DNA of 24,329 nucleotides from a virus (lineage: Duplodnaviria; Caudoviricetes): the IMG/VR virus record IMGVR_UViG_3300027804_000216, positions 1-24,329 of that record; one strand, given 5' to 3'. A program made the translations under genes and the position numbers. This document shows positions 3,290 to 14,341 of this stretch, piece by piece. Under the pieces are notes generated by a model. That model had not been told where the DNA came from and did not search any database. It saw only the letters and a program-made list of their open reading frames with translations. Every line of letters begins with the position of its first letter. Within the stretch, counting starts at the first letter, position 1.

Positions 3290-3943
3290 CTAAGCTGCAA
3301 GCGTTTTAACTCTGCGAACTTCCTTGATATGTTTGCACTCAACTTTACGAAAAGTGTTATGCGGACACGAACAAGACCACTGCGAACCAGTAACAGAAAC
3401 CGTATAGAAGCCATCGCCCGAACTAGAAGCAACCTCAAAAATCTGATCGGGTAAAACTTTCACGAACTTCTGTCGGTCAGCAGGTTCAATCCAATCCATG
3501 CCTAGCACATCAGAAACGCCACGCTCAGAACCATCATCAATCTGAACTTTGCCATCAAATAAACCAAACTGCGATAACTTTAAACCCTGTGCCTTTGCCT
3601 TCTGACGCATAATCACATTCAACTCTTTACTGCCCGTGATATACCAAAGAAATGCTCCCCATTGGCAAGGCGTAGCGCACCAAATATCCACGCCGAAAGG
3701 TTGACCGCCTAAATCAAAAACACCGTGAGCAGCCTGCTCGCCTAAACGCTCAAAGAACAACCAGTCAGGCAACAAAACATCGCTCAAAGAATCTGCTTGA
3801 ACCACAATGTCAAGATCGCCCACCTGATCGGCTCGCCTTCGAAACGAACCACCGACTTCACAAATCAAGTTTTGTGCTTTGAACCCAGCTAGCAAATCTT
3901 TAGCAACAGGTTCAATTTTTTCAAAACCTATGCGAACTTTCAT
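3290..3943 (-). CDS. polX: Minimal family X DNA polymerase (palm + thumb) fused to a C-terminal SWIM-type Zn finger
   Basis: GGSFRR...GDLDIVV, third Asp in GVDIW, YITGSKELN...MRQKAK..GLKLSQFGL, ERGVSDVLGMDWIEPADR; then CSCP...CKH. Start reassigned to ATG 3943, which follows a GGAGG RBS. Confidence 0.85.
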   Translation of the reverse strand: MKVRIGFEKIEPVAKDLLAGFKAQNLICEVGGSFRRRADQVGDLDIVVQADSLSDVLLPDWLFFERLGEQAAHGVFDLGGQPFGVDIWCATPCQWGAFLWYITGSKELNVIMRQKAKAQGLKLSQFGLFDGKVQIDDGSERGVSDVLGMDWIEPADRQKFVKVLPDQIFEVASSSGDGFYTVSVTGSQWSCSCPHNTFRKVECKHIKEVRRVKTLAA

Positions 3944-4106
3944 CACAATCCTCCTTTGTAATAAAGACAATTCTACTTCGCAAGACCAGATAGAATTAAA
4001 AATATGACGCACCGAAAAAGTAGTTTTGCCGCCGAATTATACGGCAGGGGGGCACAGGGGTAGTAGGGCAAGCCCTGTAAAAAAAATCGCTTTTGTTTTT
4101 GCGTGT
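3944..4106. other. Intergenic region between HNH and PolX/TerS: probable cos (genome end) plus promoter
   Basis: Lies downstream of an HNH gene and upstream of terminase, as in HK97-like cos phages. Has a GCCG-N7-CGGC dyad (4031-4045, TATAAT on the minus strand), G runs, an A run near 4079-4086 and a TAGAAT -10 candidate at 3970-3975 (minus). Confidence 0.45.
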
Positions 4107-4415
4107 TCAGTTCGAGGTGATCGGTTTGTTTTGTCGGCGTGAGTTGCAAGATCGGTGGGCTGCTGCGAGAGGTGAGTTTGGGTCTGCTGGTATTAGGTGG
4201 TCTGCTGTAAATGGGTCGTTAAGTTTTTTGCCTTGTCCACATATCCAGCAGGCGATAGCAGTGTCTCTGATCTGTTTGGCTCGCCTTCGATAGTCGCCTT
4301 TGTAGTGGGGTCTGTTTGGTTTAGGGTGTTGTTGGTGCCAGAGGGTTTGACAGCGTGTGCAGCGTGTGGCGTTGCTTGTTAAGATTCGACAGTTCAAACA
4401 GGGTTTTTTAATCAT
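4107..4415 (-). CDS. HNH endonuclease (terminase-associated type)
   Basis: N-terminal CLNC..RCTRC, then CWICG...TADHLIP...AAHRSCNSRR; located upstream of the packaging genes. Start at 4415 or 4424. Confidence 0.9.
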   Translation of the reverse strand: MIKKPCLNCRILTSNATRCTRCQTLWHQQHPKPNRPHYKGDYRRRAKQIRDTAIACWICGQGKKLNDPFTADHLIPADPNSPLAAAHRSCNSRRQNKPITSN

Positions 4416-5211
4416 TTTTTGCAACAGGTTTTGATAATCGTTGGTGTGTAATTCTTTTTAATCGCAGGTTGGTTATTCCTCCAGCTTTTAAATAGGTGGA
4501 GGCGAGTTCAGAATGTCGATATGCGATGCGTTTTAATTGTTGTGTGTGATCTTTTTGTCGTTCAGCGATTCCTCTTGTTTTAAGTTCTGCGTCAATTCCA
4601 CCGCTAGCAAAATAGTCTGTTTTAGCAGTTATATAATTGAGCCGAACGACGCTGCCGTGGTGTTTAAAACTTTGTAGGGTTGTCTCATAATCGTTACCTG
4701 ATGATGAAAGTAAACGGTTGGGTGTGGTTATGGCGATGTCTTGTGCGTAGGTGCCCCAACAGCAGCCAATAATGTAACGCAAACCAACAACGATTTCATC
4801 GCTCATGTAAAATGCGTTTCGCACTGGGTAGATTCCCCACATTCGGCTTTTTGTTTTTTCGCAAATATCAAAACCGACTGCAACCAAATTATCTAAGTTG
4901 CCGTCATATTCGCTAAGTTGATCGCCCTGTTTTTGTTCAAGCGCAGCAATGTCGTCATCAAGTATTAACAACGGCGTGTTGGGTGCATATGTCATATGTG
5001 CTGCTTTTATTGATTGGAAATGACCCAGTGTTGTAATTTTCAATTTAATTGTGTGTGGAACGAATTGTTTGTAAATTTGATATTGTTCTTCGTTCGCAAC
5101 GAACACTGTAATTCGAGAGTGGTCGGCGTGGTAACGATCTAAAGTTTTAAGGGTCAAATCACGCAGACGCTCAGGTCTGGCATAAGACATAATAGCAATT
5201 TGATAATCCAT
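4408..5211 (-). CDS. GT-A fold glycosyltransferase, TET-associated / GREB1-like
   Basis: YQIAIMSYARP...TLKTL, ITVFVANEEQYQIY, LILDDDI metal-binding motif, NDYETTLQ, GSVVRLN...YFASGG; adjacent to a TET/JBP gene. Confidence 0.85.
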   Translation of the reverse strand: MDYQIAIMSYARPERLRDLTLKTLDRYHADHSRITVFVANEEQYQIYKQFVPHTIKLKITTLGHFQSIKAAHMTYAPNTPLLILDDDIAALEQKQGDQLSEYDGNLDNLVAVGFDICEKTKSRMWGIYPVRNAFYMSDEIVVGLRYIIGCCWGTYAQDIAITTPNRLLSSSGNDYETTLQSFKHHGSVVRLNYITAKTDYFASGGIDAELKTRGIAERQKDHTQQLKRIAYRHSELASTYLKAGGITNLRLKRITHQRLSKPVAKND

Positions 5212-5219
5212 TTTGTGAT

Positions 5220-6035
5220 CTATTGTGAAGCCTTAATCGCTGCCCTGTTGGTTTCTTGTTCTCGACAACCGCATTGTTTTATTTTGTTTTTGGCATACCA
5301 AACTATTGTAAATCTGTAAGCATCTTTTTTCTTGGGCGTCAATGGGGTAACGCCGTGCCATAGTTCTTGACCATTGAAGATAAGAATTGAGTTGTTTGGC
5401 ACTCCGAGAACCAAATCATATTCTGGTAAGTGTAAGTGTCCACCTTCTAGATTTTTTCTAAGCGACAGCATCATTGACCACGAACCTGTGAAGTTTCCAG
5501 AATCTTTGTGATAAGGCAAAGCAGACCAGTTGTTAATGATTCCCGAAGTAAAAGGGGTTTCGCCAAGTAGCCAATCTGGGTGCGCTTGGCTTGTAACTAT
5601 TTGTTTGTGTGATTCGGCTCGGTGCGGGTCAATACTTGCGAACAGCTCGTAACTGTGTTTTGCGATTTCTGATAAAAGTTTATTGAGCGTGGGTTGTTCT
5701 TCGTTTAGTTTCGCCGTTGAGCAGCCGTAACGTTTACGCAATTTTTCTGGTGCGAGTGTTCCGAATACTCTGTTCGAAGCGATGATGCCCGACAAGCGTG
5801 ATACTCCTCCGTTATCCCATTTGATCGAATGTCGCAAAATCTTTTCAACTTCTTTGCTTAACGGTTTTTTGTCGTCAGACAAACTTATTTGTATCGCAAC
5901 GATCGCTTGGTGTTTTTTGTCAATGACAATCACATCTTCGTTAATTTCGTTTTCAAGATTTGGGGCGTGGAGTTTTTTTCTAGCAGGTTTCCAATCTTTG
6001 TATGACGCTTCAATTATTTTTGTCATAGTTTTCAA
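5220..6035 (-). CDS. TET/JBP-family 2-oxoglutarate-Fe(II) dioxygenase
   Basis: PFTSGIIN..SALPYHKDSGN (HxD), GGHLHLPEY, WHGVTP (distal His), RFTIVWY (2OG-binding Arg). Confidence 0.88.
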   Translation of the reverse strand: MKTMTKIIEASYKDWKPARKKLHAPNLENEINEDVIVIDKKHQAIVAIQISLSDDKKPLSKEVEKILRHSIKWDNGGVSRLSGIIASNRVFGTLAPEKLRKRYGCSTAKLNEEQPTLNKLLSEIAKHSYELFASIDPHRAESHKQIVTSQAHPDWLLGETPFTSGIINNWSALPYHKDSGNFTGSWSMMLSLRKNLEGGHLHLPEYDLVLGVPNNSILIFNGQELWHGVTPLTPKKKDAYRFTIVWYAKNKIKQCGCREQETNRAAIKASQ

Positions 6036-6633
6036 TTAGATACAACACTATCTCAGAATATGATTGTTTGGCTAAATCTTTCATTAGTTCGTTTAATCGT
6101 TGTTTGACGATTTCTATGTTTTGTTTCGTAAAAGGTAGAACGAGGTTTCTTGTATCAGTGAGATCGAAGTTTGCAAGTTGTTCGCTTGCGTCTGGAACAT
6201 CTTTGATAAAACCGAGCGAGCCGTTCAACTTGTAGATGAGATCGTCAAGGTCATCACCGTCATATAATGTTCCTGCGAAACCTTCATCGCTTCCAGAAAG
6301 ACTTTTAAGCAGTTCTGCTAAACCATCATCGTTATACATCGCAAGGTCTGTTGTTCTGTTGTCTGCTAACAAAATACGCACGGCTTCATTTTCGTTTTTC
6401 GTTTCGATAAATCCTGCGCTAATTTTTGACCAGCCGAGAGACTTGGCTGCTTTCCAAGTATGGTTTCCTGCCAAAATAAAGTTGGTGCGCCTATCAACAA
6501 CTATCGGGCGATACTGTCCGTGTGCTTTGAGCGATTCTGAGATTGCGCCGATATCGCCTTGACGCACATTCTTTGGGTGAGCCTCGATCGAATCGATATC
6601 TACGGTTGTGTATTCAATTTTGCGTTGTTCCAT
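6010..6633 (-). CDS. ParB/Sulfiredoxin N-terminal domain protein
   Basis: HPKNVRQGD...ESLKAHGQYRPIVV...ILAGNHTWKAAKSLG...LADNRT. Start reassigned to ATG 6633. Confidence 0.9.
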   Translation of the reverse strand: MEQRKIEYTTVDIDSIEAHPKNVRQGDIGAISESLKAHGQYRPIVVDRRTNFILAGNHTWKAAKSLGWSKISAGFIETKNENEAVRILLADNRTTDLAMYNDDGLAELLKSLSGSDEGFAGTLYDGDDLDDLIYKLNGSLGFIKDVPDASEQLANFDLTDTRNLVLPFTKQNIEIVKQRLNELMKDLAKQSYSEIVLYLIENYDKNN

Positions 6634-6634
6634 C

Positions 6635-6796
6635 TCAATCCTTTTCGATTTGATAATTGGCATAACTCATTGTAATTAACTTGCCATCAGAGGCTACACC
6701 AATCCAAGTGGGTGCGTCACTATCACATAAACAGCCAACTGTTCTTTTAGGGTCGGGTTCGAAAGAGTGTAAACAGTTTAAGCATCTGATTTTCAT
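6635..6796 (-). CDS. Small Cys-rich (Zn-ribbon-like) protein, 53 aa (not in ORF track)
   Basis: Hand translation MKIRCLNCLHSFEPDPKRTVGCLCDSDAPTWIGVASDGKLITMSYANYQIEKD; ATGA-coupled to the gp88-like gene and fills the gap. Confidence 0.7.
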   Translation of the reverse strand: MKIRCLNCLHSFEPDPKRTVGCLCDSDAPTWIGVASDGKLITMSYANYQIEKD

Positions 6797-9638: not shown

Positions 9639-10163
9639 TTAACAGCCAAGCCACGCTGACCAGCCACATTTGCCCTTCGCCCTGTCATAGCTGATCAACG
9701 CCTGCGCTGCGTCAATCGTTACAGCAACATCGAATAAATCTGCTGGCACAAGATCACGCCCTAGAACCGTTTGAAGATATCCGTTCGGATAATAAGTAGT
9801 GCGCTGAATCCAAAACAAATTGATCTGAAACAAGCCAAGCGAACCCTTTACGCCCTGCACAGTGTTTGGGTCATTCTTATTATGTGCCGAAGCAATACAA
9901 CGAGACTCTCGCCAAACAATCTGATCTGCTTTAACTACATCTTTCTCGAGCCAACCAGCATCACGCAAACGACCCCACAATTCAGGGCATTTAGCCCAAA
10001 CGGGGATATCACGCTTCAAAGTTGGAACGAAATCAAACGGATGTTTGGCCATTTGAACTTGATCTATCTTTCGAGGTGCTTCAGCAGCGTCAGCGATACT
10101 GACCCAACCGATACAACTTGCTGCTAATAAAACAAAAATCTTTTTCACATTAACTCCAATCAC
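9639..10163 (-). CDS. Secreted lytic transglycosylase (SLT/lysozyme-like fold)
   Basis: Signal peptide (KKIFVLLAASCIGWVSIADA), catalytic WRESRC, GLFQIN, C-terminal GWSAW. Start reassigned to GTG 10163 after AGAAGGAGG. Confidence 0.85.
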   Translation of the reverse strand: MIGVNVKKIFVLLAASCIGWVSIADAAEAPRKIDQVQMAKHPFDFVPTLKRDIPVWAKCPELWGRLRDAGWLEKDVVKADQIVWRESRCIASAHNKNDPNTVQGVKGSLGLFQINLFWIQRTTYYPNGYLQTVLGRDLVPADLFDVAVTIDAAQALISYDRAKGKCGWSAWLGC

Positions 10164-10184: not shown

Positions 10185-10520
10185 GTTATAGGTTTTTAGT
10201 TTTCTTTGGTCTGTCCTTGACAGGTCGTGGCGTAATCGCTCATCGTTCGCCTTAGTCGGCGTATATCTCAACCCTAGCATTACTCTGAGAGCGTGTGTGA
10301 GTTTTAATTTTATTTACACGCACACTGAACGCTACTGTTTGGCGACTTAAAGAGATTATGAAACCCCCCTATCGCTCTGCCTCACTGCGATACCCAAATC
10401 ATTTTTCGCAAACGCCGTAATTGCTTGCAGCGTTTTCTACCCTCGTTGCCGAGTGTCACCAACTACCTTGCGAAGGGTTTAGGTCTAAATGAGTATTCTC
10501 TAGTTTTCGTTTATTGCTTA
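10185..10520 (-). ncRNA. Candidate structured ncRNA / replication-origin region
   Basis: Longest non-coding stretch in the window. Stacked hairpins, two with clear GCAA tetraloops on the minus strand, a closing stem, a G6 tract and an AT-rich bubble. Confidence 0.55.
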
Positions 10521-10521
10521 A

Positions 10522-10923
10522 CTACGCTGCGCCGAACTCCCGACATTTACAAGGCACGACATACGAATATGTGCGCCCCATAACGATCTTGGTGAATCCT
10601 TCGCAAATCAATTCTTTAGCGTTGTAATTCCATCGCCTGCCGTTATCCCAACCATTTCCATCGCAAATCTCGCAAACAACAATCGTTTGTTCTGTCGCAG
10701 GCTTACGAAGTAGCCTAAACGCTTTATGAACTTCTTTAAGACTTGGGAACTTGTCGTGAAGTTCCATAATCAATGGCACGACTTTTCGAGCATCTTCAAC
10801 ACTTTGAAGTAATAAAAAATCGTCAGCAGTCCAAGCGTGTTTCGCTTTCGCTAACGAAACTTGTTGCGATGGATAGATTCCACAAATACGATCTATAAAG
10901 CCTTCTATTTGTGCTGGTGTCAT
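10522..10923 (-). CDS. Putative helicase loader/inhibitor-like replication accessory protein with Zn finger
   Basis: Helical N-terminal domain ending KFPSLKEV (G39P-like pattern), then CEICDGNGW...PCKC. Function is inferred. Confidence 0.55.
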   Translation of the reverse strand: MTPAQIEGFIDRICGIYPSQQVSLAKAKHAWTADDFLLLQSVEDARKVVPLIMELHDKFPSLKEVHKAFRLLRKPATEQTIVVCEICDGNGWDNGRRWNYNAKELICEGFTKIVMGRTYSYVVPCKCREFGAA

Positions 10924-12646: not shown

Positions 12647-13397
12647 TTGTTTTCTTCTGGCGCATACTCATCAAATGTTTGATCAGGTCAGAACCTTCTT
12701 TGGTTGTAAGCGTGTTTAAGTTTGCTTTATCGAACAGTTGCTTCAAGATCGAACCGATATCGCCATCAGCAACTTCTTTCGCTAACGATGACACCAAGCC
12801 TTTCTGCTTGTCTGATATCAGGCTGCCGATCTTCGCAGTTGGTTTCGGGGGTGTAGAGAACGACTGTTCTATTTGCTCGTCACTCAACGCTTCCTGCTGG
12901 CTGCTTTTTGGCTGAACATTTGCTGGGTGCGCCTGTTTGCTCTTTTCAACCTCAACTTGGCTCATCGGGTAACTCGTATAGACGCTGCTCACATTCGTTC
13001 GAGGTGCTTCCCAATCTTGTTTAGACCAAAGCGAAAGACAAATACCGAATCGCATCGCAGCGTTTCGCAAGAAGTCTCCGACAAGTTCTTTGTCAAGATC
13101 AGGTTTGTCTGCCCTTACCGAACCGACACCGACAAGCGACTTGCCTAACAAAGTAAGTGTTCCCCACATTGTCGCTACGCCGTTTGCTTCGTGTATTGCT
13201 GGTCTACCATCGACCCAAGCGACAGGTTGCCAATTCCACATCGGGTCAATCTCAATCAAGATGCGAGTGATTTCTGCGTGACTCACATAGGCGAGGTTGA
13301 TTCCGTTGCGTGGTATCGTGCCGACAATTTTCGGGTCGGGTGTTGCGTATTGCTCTAACACTGCTTTAAGCAGTAGTGCTTCTGTTTCATTACTCAT
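12630..13397 (-). CDS. Rad52/Sak-like single-strand annealing protein
   Basis: LAYVSHAEITRIL..IDPMWNW and KELVGDFLRNAAMRFGICLSLW; paired with a YqaJ exonuclease; low-complexity linker and short C-terminal helical domain. Confidence 0.8.
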   Translation of the reverse strand: MSNETEALLLKAVLEQYATPDPKIVGTIPRNGINLAYVSHAEITRILIEIDPMWNWQPVAWVDGRPAIHEANGVATMWGTLTLLGKSLVGVGSVRADKPDLDKELVGDFLRNAAMRFGICLSLWSKQDWEAPRTNVSSVYTSYPMSQVEVEKSKQAHPANVQPKSSQQEALSDEQIEQSFSTPPKPTAKIGSLISDKQKGLVSSLAKEVADGDIGSILKQLFDKANLNTLTTKEGSDLIKHLMSMRQKKTNEEPF

Positions 13398-14341
13398 TAC
13401 TTAACCTTCTTTCTGTGTGTTCTCATCACACGGTATGGGTTTCCTTGCTTCTCATATTGCTTAACTAACTCTGGGTGATCGGCTCGAAGTCTCGCCGTAT
13501 CTAACGCTGTCTTGCCTGCTTGCTGAGTCCACGAAACAATCTTCTGCCCGTTAAACATACCAATTTCGTGATTCAACATCATCTGAGCAAGAGCATCTTT
13601 GATTCGTGCCTCAGCATCGCTCGCCTCTTTCGAAGTCGCCCGTGCTTTCTCAAGATCAATCACCAACTGCGCTGCTGTCGCATCTAACTCAACCATTGTC
13701 GGTGTAGCCCTAAAGATACGAGCAATATCATCTGCACTGAAGTTATTGATCTCGTCAAGCGGTGGCGTGTTGTTATCAACCCATTCACCAAACACTTCTG
13801 CCTCTAATCGCAGAGCGTCAATCGCTACCTCGTTTCTAGGTAACTCGACCACGCTGATCTTTAAATCACGGTCAAGCACTGAGAACCAAACAGGGCAATC
13901 AAGCACCGCTTGTTGCGCCCAGCCCTGCCAACACCACTCCGTAGGCAAATCGTTTTGGTCATAAATTGAATAGCGTGTAGTCGTTTTCGCCTCAACTACT
14001 AATTCGGGTTGAATTGAATTATCTACACCGTCAAGCGACACTGAGAGTCTGCCATCACGGTAGATCGTGTCAGGTGTAAAGAATGTGTAGCCCAATTCTT
14101 CTGACGCTGCTTCTAGCAACGGCTTCTCAAGCAAGTTTCCACGCCGAAAGATTGCCGACTCTGCCTGTTCTTGAGGCTCATTCAGTTTGTCTGCAAACAG
14201 TTCAGCTCTCGTCTTGTATGGCGAAGCGTTCATTAGCGCAGGGATATCGGAAGCCCCGAACACGCATCTGCCTAAATCATCTCGCCATCTAGTCAGTAGC
14301 CATTCTTTGCTTCCGTGTTTCGGTTTTGATATTCGTTCCAT
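13397..14341 (-). CDS. YqaJ/lambda-exonuclease-like recombination nuclease
   Basis: EWL..R...FGASD...SPYKT, RRGNLLE, SLDG, VEAKT, WQGWAQ; C-terminal LDTARLRADHPEL..QY. Confidence 0.92.
   Translation of the reverse strand: MERISKPKHGSKEWLLTRWRDDLGRCVFGASDIPALMNASPYKTRAELFADKLNEPQEQAESAIFRRGNLLEKPLLEAASEELGYTFFTPDTIYRDGRLSVSLDGVDNSIQPELVVEAKTTTRYSIYDQNDLPTEWCWQGWAQQAVLDCPVWFSVLDRDLKISVVELPRNEVAIDALRLEAEVFGEWVDNNTPPLDEINNFSADDIARIFRATPTMVELDATAAQLVIDLEKARATSKEASDAEARIKDALAQMMLNHEIGMFNGQKIVSWTQQAGKTALDTARLRADHPELVKQYEKQGNPYRVMRTHRKKVK

Follow-up and report, generated by a model that had tools for sequence, protein, structure and literature searches.

What does a phage keep in a stretch of 340 nt that separates two of its genes? 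The question is raised by positions 10,185-10,520 of a freshwater phage sequence, a region that a sequence-only reading had taken for one highly structured minus-strand RNA and possibly an RNA-primed replication origin. The genes of the window, that is the whole 24.3-kb piece of phage DNA that was analysed, include those for portal, terminase, WhiB, YqaJ exonuclease and single-strand annealing and lie, with few exceptions, on the minus strand; its complete relatives (G006 and G007) measure about 32 kb. WhiB is an actinophage marker according to PMC6802176. No tRNA was found in the window.

The region is flanked by an upstream gene coding for a protein of 133 aa and by a downstream lysozyme-like gene (Table 1). 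The structure of the 133-aa protein was modelled with a pLDDT of 82.6, and its comparison with Pfam, PHROG and PDB sequences returned zero matches; it is at most a putative helicase loader (G39P / lambda-P-type), a label that follows from its general pattern. Since this gene is absent from three loci that carry the RNA described below (L049, L063 and L072), the RNA is independent of it. In another genome (G166), a gene resembling it is located about 5 kb away from each RNA copy.

Elsewhere in the window, at 4408-6663 (minus strand), TET/JBP-like oxygenase, TET-associated glycosyltransferase and ParB-like genes likely form a DNA base-modification cassette; instead of it, G006 contains a set made of amino acid:DNA transferase and kinase. 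At 3290-4012 (minus strand), flanked by the HNH-like gene and the small terminase gene, lies the gene of a PolX-like protein (palm and thumb) that has a SWIM zinc finger.

Table 1. Features of the 340-nt region and its flanking genes (positions in the window)
Feature	Position	Strand	Basis or remark
Upstream gene (133 aa), N-terminal domain helical, CxxC..CxC module at the C-terminus	10522..10923	-	
Element A, predicted conserved structured RNA core (P1-P2-P3, pseudoknot, P4, G tail)	10362..10489	-	model R1 match (the window belongs to the R1 seed); covariation
P1	10458..10484	-	two-sided changes at inner pairs
P2, 6-bp stem with A.G mismatch, GNRA loop, then AG	10439..10456	-	
P3, long hairpin, GCAA loop in the window	10410..10435	-	294/296 cells paired (27 close homologs)
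Pseudoknot 3' strand GCG, 3 bp with the P1 loop	10407..10409	-	
P4, 5-bp stem, conserved GGCA-containing loop	10371..10391	-	
G6 tail	10364..10369	-	G-rich in 211/215 members vs 46/169 upstream control windows
AT-centred low-complexity palindrome	10290..10326	.	variable sequence, poly-T in part of the relatives
Extended -10 element (TG.TAGGGT) of the promoter of the downstream operon	10271..10279	-	comparison of relatives
Element B, three-hairpin 5' leader of the lysozyme-like gene	10211..10264	-	observed in the 32-kb family
Downstream lysozyme-like (SLT_3) gene	9639..10163	-	E 2e-4, weaker than the curated cut-off; also the G006 ortholog

A region made of three parts

Homolog loci were collected through the upstream 133-aa protein. 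The region was matched in 32 of the 34 loci obtained, nearly at full length in 29, the two other contigs ending short of it. In their alignment, two conserved blocks, one 5' and one 3', are separated by a variable middle that is AT-rich. As judged from this sequence comparison, the region is composed of element A, an AT-rich palindrome with a promoter, and a separate leader referred to as element B. It is not the single 340-nt RNA that had been proposed, since the conserved promoter cuts it in two. What stands of that proposal is a putative novel structured RNA of the minus strand restricted to the 5' 130 nt, for which covariation, G-U/G-C swaps on the minus strand and the lack of a corresponding Rfam family argue.

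The motifs quoted in the sequence-only reading are present where it had placed them, and its stems were scored on 27 close homologs (alignment A1). The CTCG/CGAG hairpin was paired in 108/108 cells and the ATCGC/GCGAT hairpin in 135/135; the long GCAA hairpin was likewise upheld, and the G6 tract was kept as a G-rich tail (Table 1). The CGCC/GGCG (104/106) and CTGTC/GACAG (135/135) stems also hold, but not as parts of the same RNA, given that the promoter stands before them. On the contrary, the CCTT/AAGG hairpin was paired in only 57/106 cells and its loop is that of the pseudoknot, and the sequence of the GTGTG/CACAC bubble, which sits upstream of the promoter, gives way in relatives to TA, GT or CT repeats or to poly-T. 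The 7-bp closing stem did not survive as drawn (144/185 cells paired, the outer pair in 5/27), but its 3-bp core CCT/GGG, with per-pair counts of 52, 54 and 62 of 63, may form as an alternative fold. The folding energy of the region was no better than that of shuffled sequences (z -1.37 on the minus strand and -1.32 on the plus strand), nor was that of element A alone (z -1.30), none of these values being significant; what supports the claim of a highly structured region is the part of the fold that the homologs uphold.

The promoter, which was absent from the sequence-only reading, has the form TGnTAnnnT and occurs at a fixed spacing from the 3' block in 41/42 distinct relatives. Its -10 lies at 10276-10271 in the window, where a generic promoter scan overlooked the extended -10 and reported zero promoters on either strand. 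Because the variable middle ends in this conserved promoter, the AT bubble is best seen as promoter-side DNA, and the AT-centred palindrome is a candidate unwinding zone or promoter-upstream DNA. In the same way, the small 3' hairpins are located downstream of the promoter and would thus form a separate element, the leader of the next operon. This element B directly follows the promoter in the 32-kb family, its stems change between relatives, and it is a candidate late-operon regulator. As regards expression, four runs were considered at the level of contigs only: in the sole metatranscriptome, element B is covered at depth 3 and element A is not, and the remaining runs probably represent DNA.

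Element A, a predicted pseudoknotted RNA

In P1, the ACC at 10484-10482, formerly assigned to the closing stem, pairs locally with GGT 10460-10458; an internal loop follows, which by its look may be a GNRA receptor, and then ACC 10478-10476 pairs with GGT 10467-10465. The inner pairs show two-sided changes in 7, 2 and 7 of 28 sequences, and the 8-nt loop contains the pseudoknot triplet CGC 10472-10470. P2 is the best-conserved part of element A, although its conservation and the GNRA loops are partly built in, the P2 stem having served as the search pattern; the G-U/G-C swaps were not imposed. One of its pairs is UA in 14 sequences, AU in 13 and GC in 1. P3 ranges from 19 to 67 nt in relatives. 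Its tip carries a conserved 10-nt loop in many of them (among which L093, L096, L099, L100, L161 and L198), which the window lacks and which looks like two adjacent T-loops. Finally, a long subtype has a larger 3' domain in place of P4, the window being of the short subtype with the P4 hairpin.

The pseudoknot, the other feature that had been missed, joins the P1 loop to the bases immediately 3' of P3. It was complementary in 126/161 automatically parsed members, whereas 10,000 permutations averaged 58 and never exceeded 77, a count from which six loci were skipped and in which many of the 35 misses look like parse errors. The triplets were CGC/GCG (69), TGC/GCA (53), TGG/CCA (2), TGT/ACA (1) and AGC/GCT (1), and TGA/TCA pairs were likewise observed. 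Visual inspection gave no sign of a further pseudoknot linking the P4 loop to P3.

Over 28 sequences, the four-helix model had 88.3% of cells paired vs 75.0% in shuffles, and 31-44% in slid controls. Two-sided changes were present at 17/28 pairs, a level of covariation reached by 0/500 shuffles. When the Rfam 15 covariance models were run against the window, the region alone and 20 homolog loci, no family matched, the best E values of 1.2-2.4 being far under the gathering score. Literature searches yielded no description of the motif, although it may stand, without a function, among the 10,000 phage RNA candidates of PMC10690425. Element A apparently represents a real and undescribed class of RNA in freshwater phages.

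Distribution and genomic contexts

The element A family is estimated at roughly 1,100 stretches in IMG/VR, three variants of the P2 pattern giving about 650 and about 370 (both estimates) and 83 stretches. Model R1 confirmed 96/96 candidate sources, which partly include the 28 seeds, at E < 0.001, and 0/4 chance loci; it may miss divergent members, and those of the long subtype score 15-35 bits. Eight extra matches to a P4 pattern were judged to be due to chance. In Acidimicrobiia host chromosomes, 1/151 genomes matched and that match is a phage contig (L158), while among genome contigs the remaining true matches were phage-like contigs in MAGs and the others chance. Cultured phages gave no real match, and terminase relatives among them are less than 30% identical.

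The carriers are freshwater phages of 14-46 kb that follow several genome plans: they include phages of 14-15 kb, one type of 19.6 kb, the 32-kb family and, with another virion module, phages of 38-46 kb. Most of them have a single copy of the RNA, whose presence is independent of neighbours and strand. The gene upstream of the RNA may code for a VRR-NUC protein, an annealing protein, a methylase or, as in the window, the 133-aa protein. In many carriers the RNA lies at an operon end. In several lineages it stands alone, antisense to every flanking gene, with its own -10 and sometimes with a U-run past the G tail (G168 group and L040). Such a -10, 5-11 nt ahead of a conserved ACAAY, was detected in 19/114 members vs a shuffle mean of 3 and a maximum of 8. 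As the window is devoid of this promoter, its RNA would be the 3' end of an early transcript.

Three genomes (G166, G169 and G170) each contain two different copies about 11 kb apart; these belong to different subtypes, flank the early gene block and are both antisense (G166:C1:2149-2316 and 13378-13500). A G tail is missing from 4/215 members by regex, and also from L312. The DNA past the tail is AT-rich, poly-T or A/C-rich, and T drops to 13-16% at 50-200 nt beyond it. In G004 (L300:12200-12560), the strand 3' of the RNA is A/C-rich at first and gives way, over some 300 nt at most, to G/T-rich repeats. A DpdA-like gene (L306:10570-11568, plus strand) is divergent from the RNA in G013.

The 14-15 kb carriers display a further peculiarity. 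HNH and large terminase are joined in one frame of 570-650 aa (L161, L163, L168, L175, L177, L180 and others; L291:4004-5737), and no small terminase gene was seen. Most of the 23 contig ends inspected lie about 15-25 nt past a conserved T-run just beyond the HNH domain, and a cos-like genome end may be situated inside the fused frame.

Replication genes of the carriers and of their sisters

Sixty-four of the 102 listed carrier records, 59 of them at least 90% complete, were screened for four families (Prim-Pol, DnaB_C, DNA_pol_A and HTH_36). Prim-Pol and DnaB_C were each found in 0/64, DNA_pol_A gave one weak match and none over the cut-off, and an HTH_36 initiator was present in 2/64 records and in 1/59 near-complete ones. 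Pfam and PHROG comparisons of non-structural ORFs chosen from the window and from eight complete genomes yielded zero initiators, primases or replicative polymerases.

The reverse search, starting from the HTH_36 initiator, is a stronger test than the carrier screen. The RNA was found in 10/80 loci of initiator relatives whose flanks were fetched, in 2/29 longer records chosen from these 80, and in 1/11 near-complete ones. Across these records, as far as their sequences tell, the RNA and the initiator nearly exclude each other. Six initiator genomes of 18-20 kb are sisters of carrier G168 (capsid 49-55%, portal 56-59%, terminase 46-54%), and another, G237, is close to the family of the window (capsid 68%, terminase 62%, portal 58%). 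In G237, the initiator gene is inserted with no gap between resolvase-like and lysozyme-like genes, in a slot that holds in the window a nuclease, the upstream gene, the RNA and the promoter. With filters off, R1 gave zero matches on these seven sister genomes and recovered both positive controls. These comparisons represent only two independent cases, the G168 sisters and G237.

The RNA and an initiator gene occur together in G004, G011, G219 and their kin, the gene being directly upstream of the RNA in most. The initiator gene of G004 and G011 contains internal direct repeats with an iteron-like look. This lineage may be transitional, or the RNA may have another role in it. Strand skew at fourfold sites was uninformative, as the coding-strand skew did not track the direction of the RNA.

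Relation to known RNA systems

In ColE1 plasmids, replication starts from RNA II, a transcript of about 550 nt with a G-rich stretch near the primer 3' end, through R-loop, RNase H and Pol I steps. Element A shares the G-rich stretch near its 3' end, but ColE1 is a plasmid, whereas element A belongs to phages, spans 130-250 nt and has a different fold. It has no Rfam RNAI match, the homolog L262 matches no plasmid, and no counterpart of the antisense RNA I was seen on the opposite strand, as covered by the generic promoter scan. As described in PMC3035462, ColE1 encodes no initiator of its own and relies on an origin-proximal primer RNA whose fold matters; here, 58/59 near-complete carriers, screened for four families, have no HTH_36. 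On balance, element A is somewhat more likely than not to be ColE1-like in its logic; in structure it is unrelated.

At T4 R-loop origins, a transcript primes the replication of a phage that brings a replisome of its own, and a conserved folded RNA is not known to be involved, whereas the carriers of element A are devoid of the replisome families screened. Other parallels in plasmids are the marine RNA-based (MRB) replicons and the PAGEV motif, which are Rep-free and run by RNA according to PMC3035462 and PMC5737381; MRB replicons are Vibrionaceae plasmids with an antisense pair, whereas element A has no Rfam match and L262 no plasmid match. The ARRPOF motif, about 255 nt long and likewise pseudoknotted, belongs to a region that replicates without the rep gene, and it coexists with that gene much as the RNA does with the initiator in G004 and G011 (PMC5737381 and PMC12990946). 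It is found in a Fusobacterium plasmid and has eight helices and four pseudoknots, and no Rfam model matched element A. GOLLD and ROOL are, like element A, structured RNAs of lake or gut phages without a known function (PMC5737381), but they are far larger and tRNA-associated, whereas the window has neither a tRNA nor an Rfam match. Element A works at best like ColE1, MRB and ARRPOF and is a member of none.

A proposed RNA-based origin and its alternatives

The origin proposed by the sequence-only reading gains comparative support from carriers without replication families, from sisters that have the initiator and not the RNA, and from the initiator gene found in the slot of the RNA. We infer that element A is an RNA-based replication origin standing in for a protein initiator, a function that we would put a little above an even chance. 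The RNA is also mostly single-copy, independent of neighbours and strand, and followed after its G tail by AT- or A/C-rich DNA, and Rep-free RNA replicons exist in plasmids (PMC3035462 and PMC5737381). Most of this probability, by itself somewhat short of even, falls to a primer mechanism; the rest goes to an origin working in some other way, for example through recruitment of host replication proteins by the RNA.

By the primer mechanism, element A would be transcribed by host RNA polymerase, as part of the early operon in the window and, in other carriers, under its own promoter. With the 5' domain folded, the G-rich 3' tail would remain available for pairing again with its template, so that the G6 tail would be the start of an RNA:DNA hybrid and of an R-loop that persists. 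Downstream of it, the AT-rich or A/C-rich DNA would be kept unpaired. The 3' end of the RNA would then serve host DNA polymerase as a primer, and the loading of the host helicase would fall to host restart proteins. In G166 and G168, the RNA opposes all called genes of the stretch examined, hence one-way replication from it would be head-on. Several observations weigh against an origin, namely this head-on orientation, the lineage in which RNA and initiator occur together, the three genomes with two copies, the U-run of the G168 group and L040, such as a discrete small RNA would have, and the few members without a G tail.

The same U-run, together with stand-alone antisense genes, the -10 ahead of ACAAY, duplicated copies and a compact tertiary-type anatomy, would suit a free small RNA acting in trans during infection, which might for instance scaffold a host protein, RNA polymerase or the ribosome or act as their decoy. 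This explanation is rather unlikely, albeit worth keeping in mind, and it accounts neither for the absence of the RNA from initiator-bearing sisters nor for the slot swap in G237. A ribozyme that cleaves itself or processes RNA, and trims the early transcript at its 3' end, is improbable: the short covarying pseudoknot, the conserved junction bases and the operon-end position in many carriers are what one would expect of it, but it matches no Rfam ribozyme, the subtypes differ in their 3' domain and the stand-alone antisense copies have no mRNA to trim.

The link with missing initiators would equally be explained if the fold were that of single-stranded DNA, acting on the displaced strand as a priming or helicase-loading signal, and comparable plasmid motifs may act as ssDNA (PMC5737381). 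The one-strand G-U/G-C swaps and the promoter just 5' of stand-alone copies point to a transcript instead, which makes this reading slightly more improbable still than the ribozyme. A packaging RNA similar to phi29 pRNA, or a terminase partner, comes to mind for the 14-15 kb carriers, where the RNA lies about 250 nt ahead of the HNH-terminase frame and no small terminase subunit was seen. It is nevertheless very improbable, as the family of the window has a TerS-like gene about 7 kb from the RNA and sisters with similar portal and terminase have no RNA. Despite an aptamer-like size and a pseudoknot, a riboswitch, leader or antiterminator of a neighbouring gene is scarcely credible and is largely excluded by context: the promoter separates the RNA from the downstream gene, and variable neighbours, with no consistent gene class 3' and with copies antisense to all flanking genes in several lineages, argue against it.

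Significance

Small phages of about 15 kb, the 'miniphages', abound in freshwater, and actinophages are among them (PMC6802176). The carriers examined here encode no recognisable means of starting DNA replication, and element A offers a specific and testable answer to how they do so. Two families with RNA-mediated initiation, the ColE1 and MRB plasmids, were counted as of 2010 (PMC3035462). Element A may tentatively be regarded, at a likelihood not quite even, as a widespread third family of replicons primed by RNA and, among tailed phages, the first, one that would let freshwater actinophages of 14-46 kb start replication with host enzymes alone and that would be exchanged with a lambda-O-like initiator gene. 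Should the origin reading fail, a new class of structured RNA with about a thousand natural variants would still be at hand. If it is true, RNA-primed and protein-free initiation would no longer be confined to two plasmid families but would reach a large group of phages, and actinobacteria could be provided with a minimal replicon.
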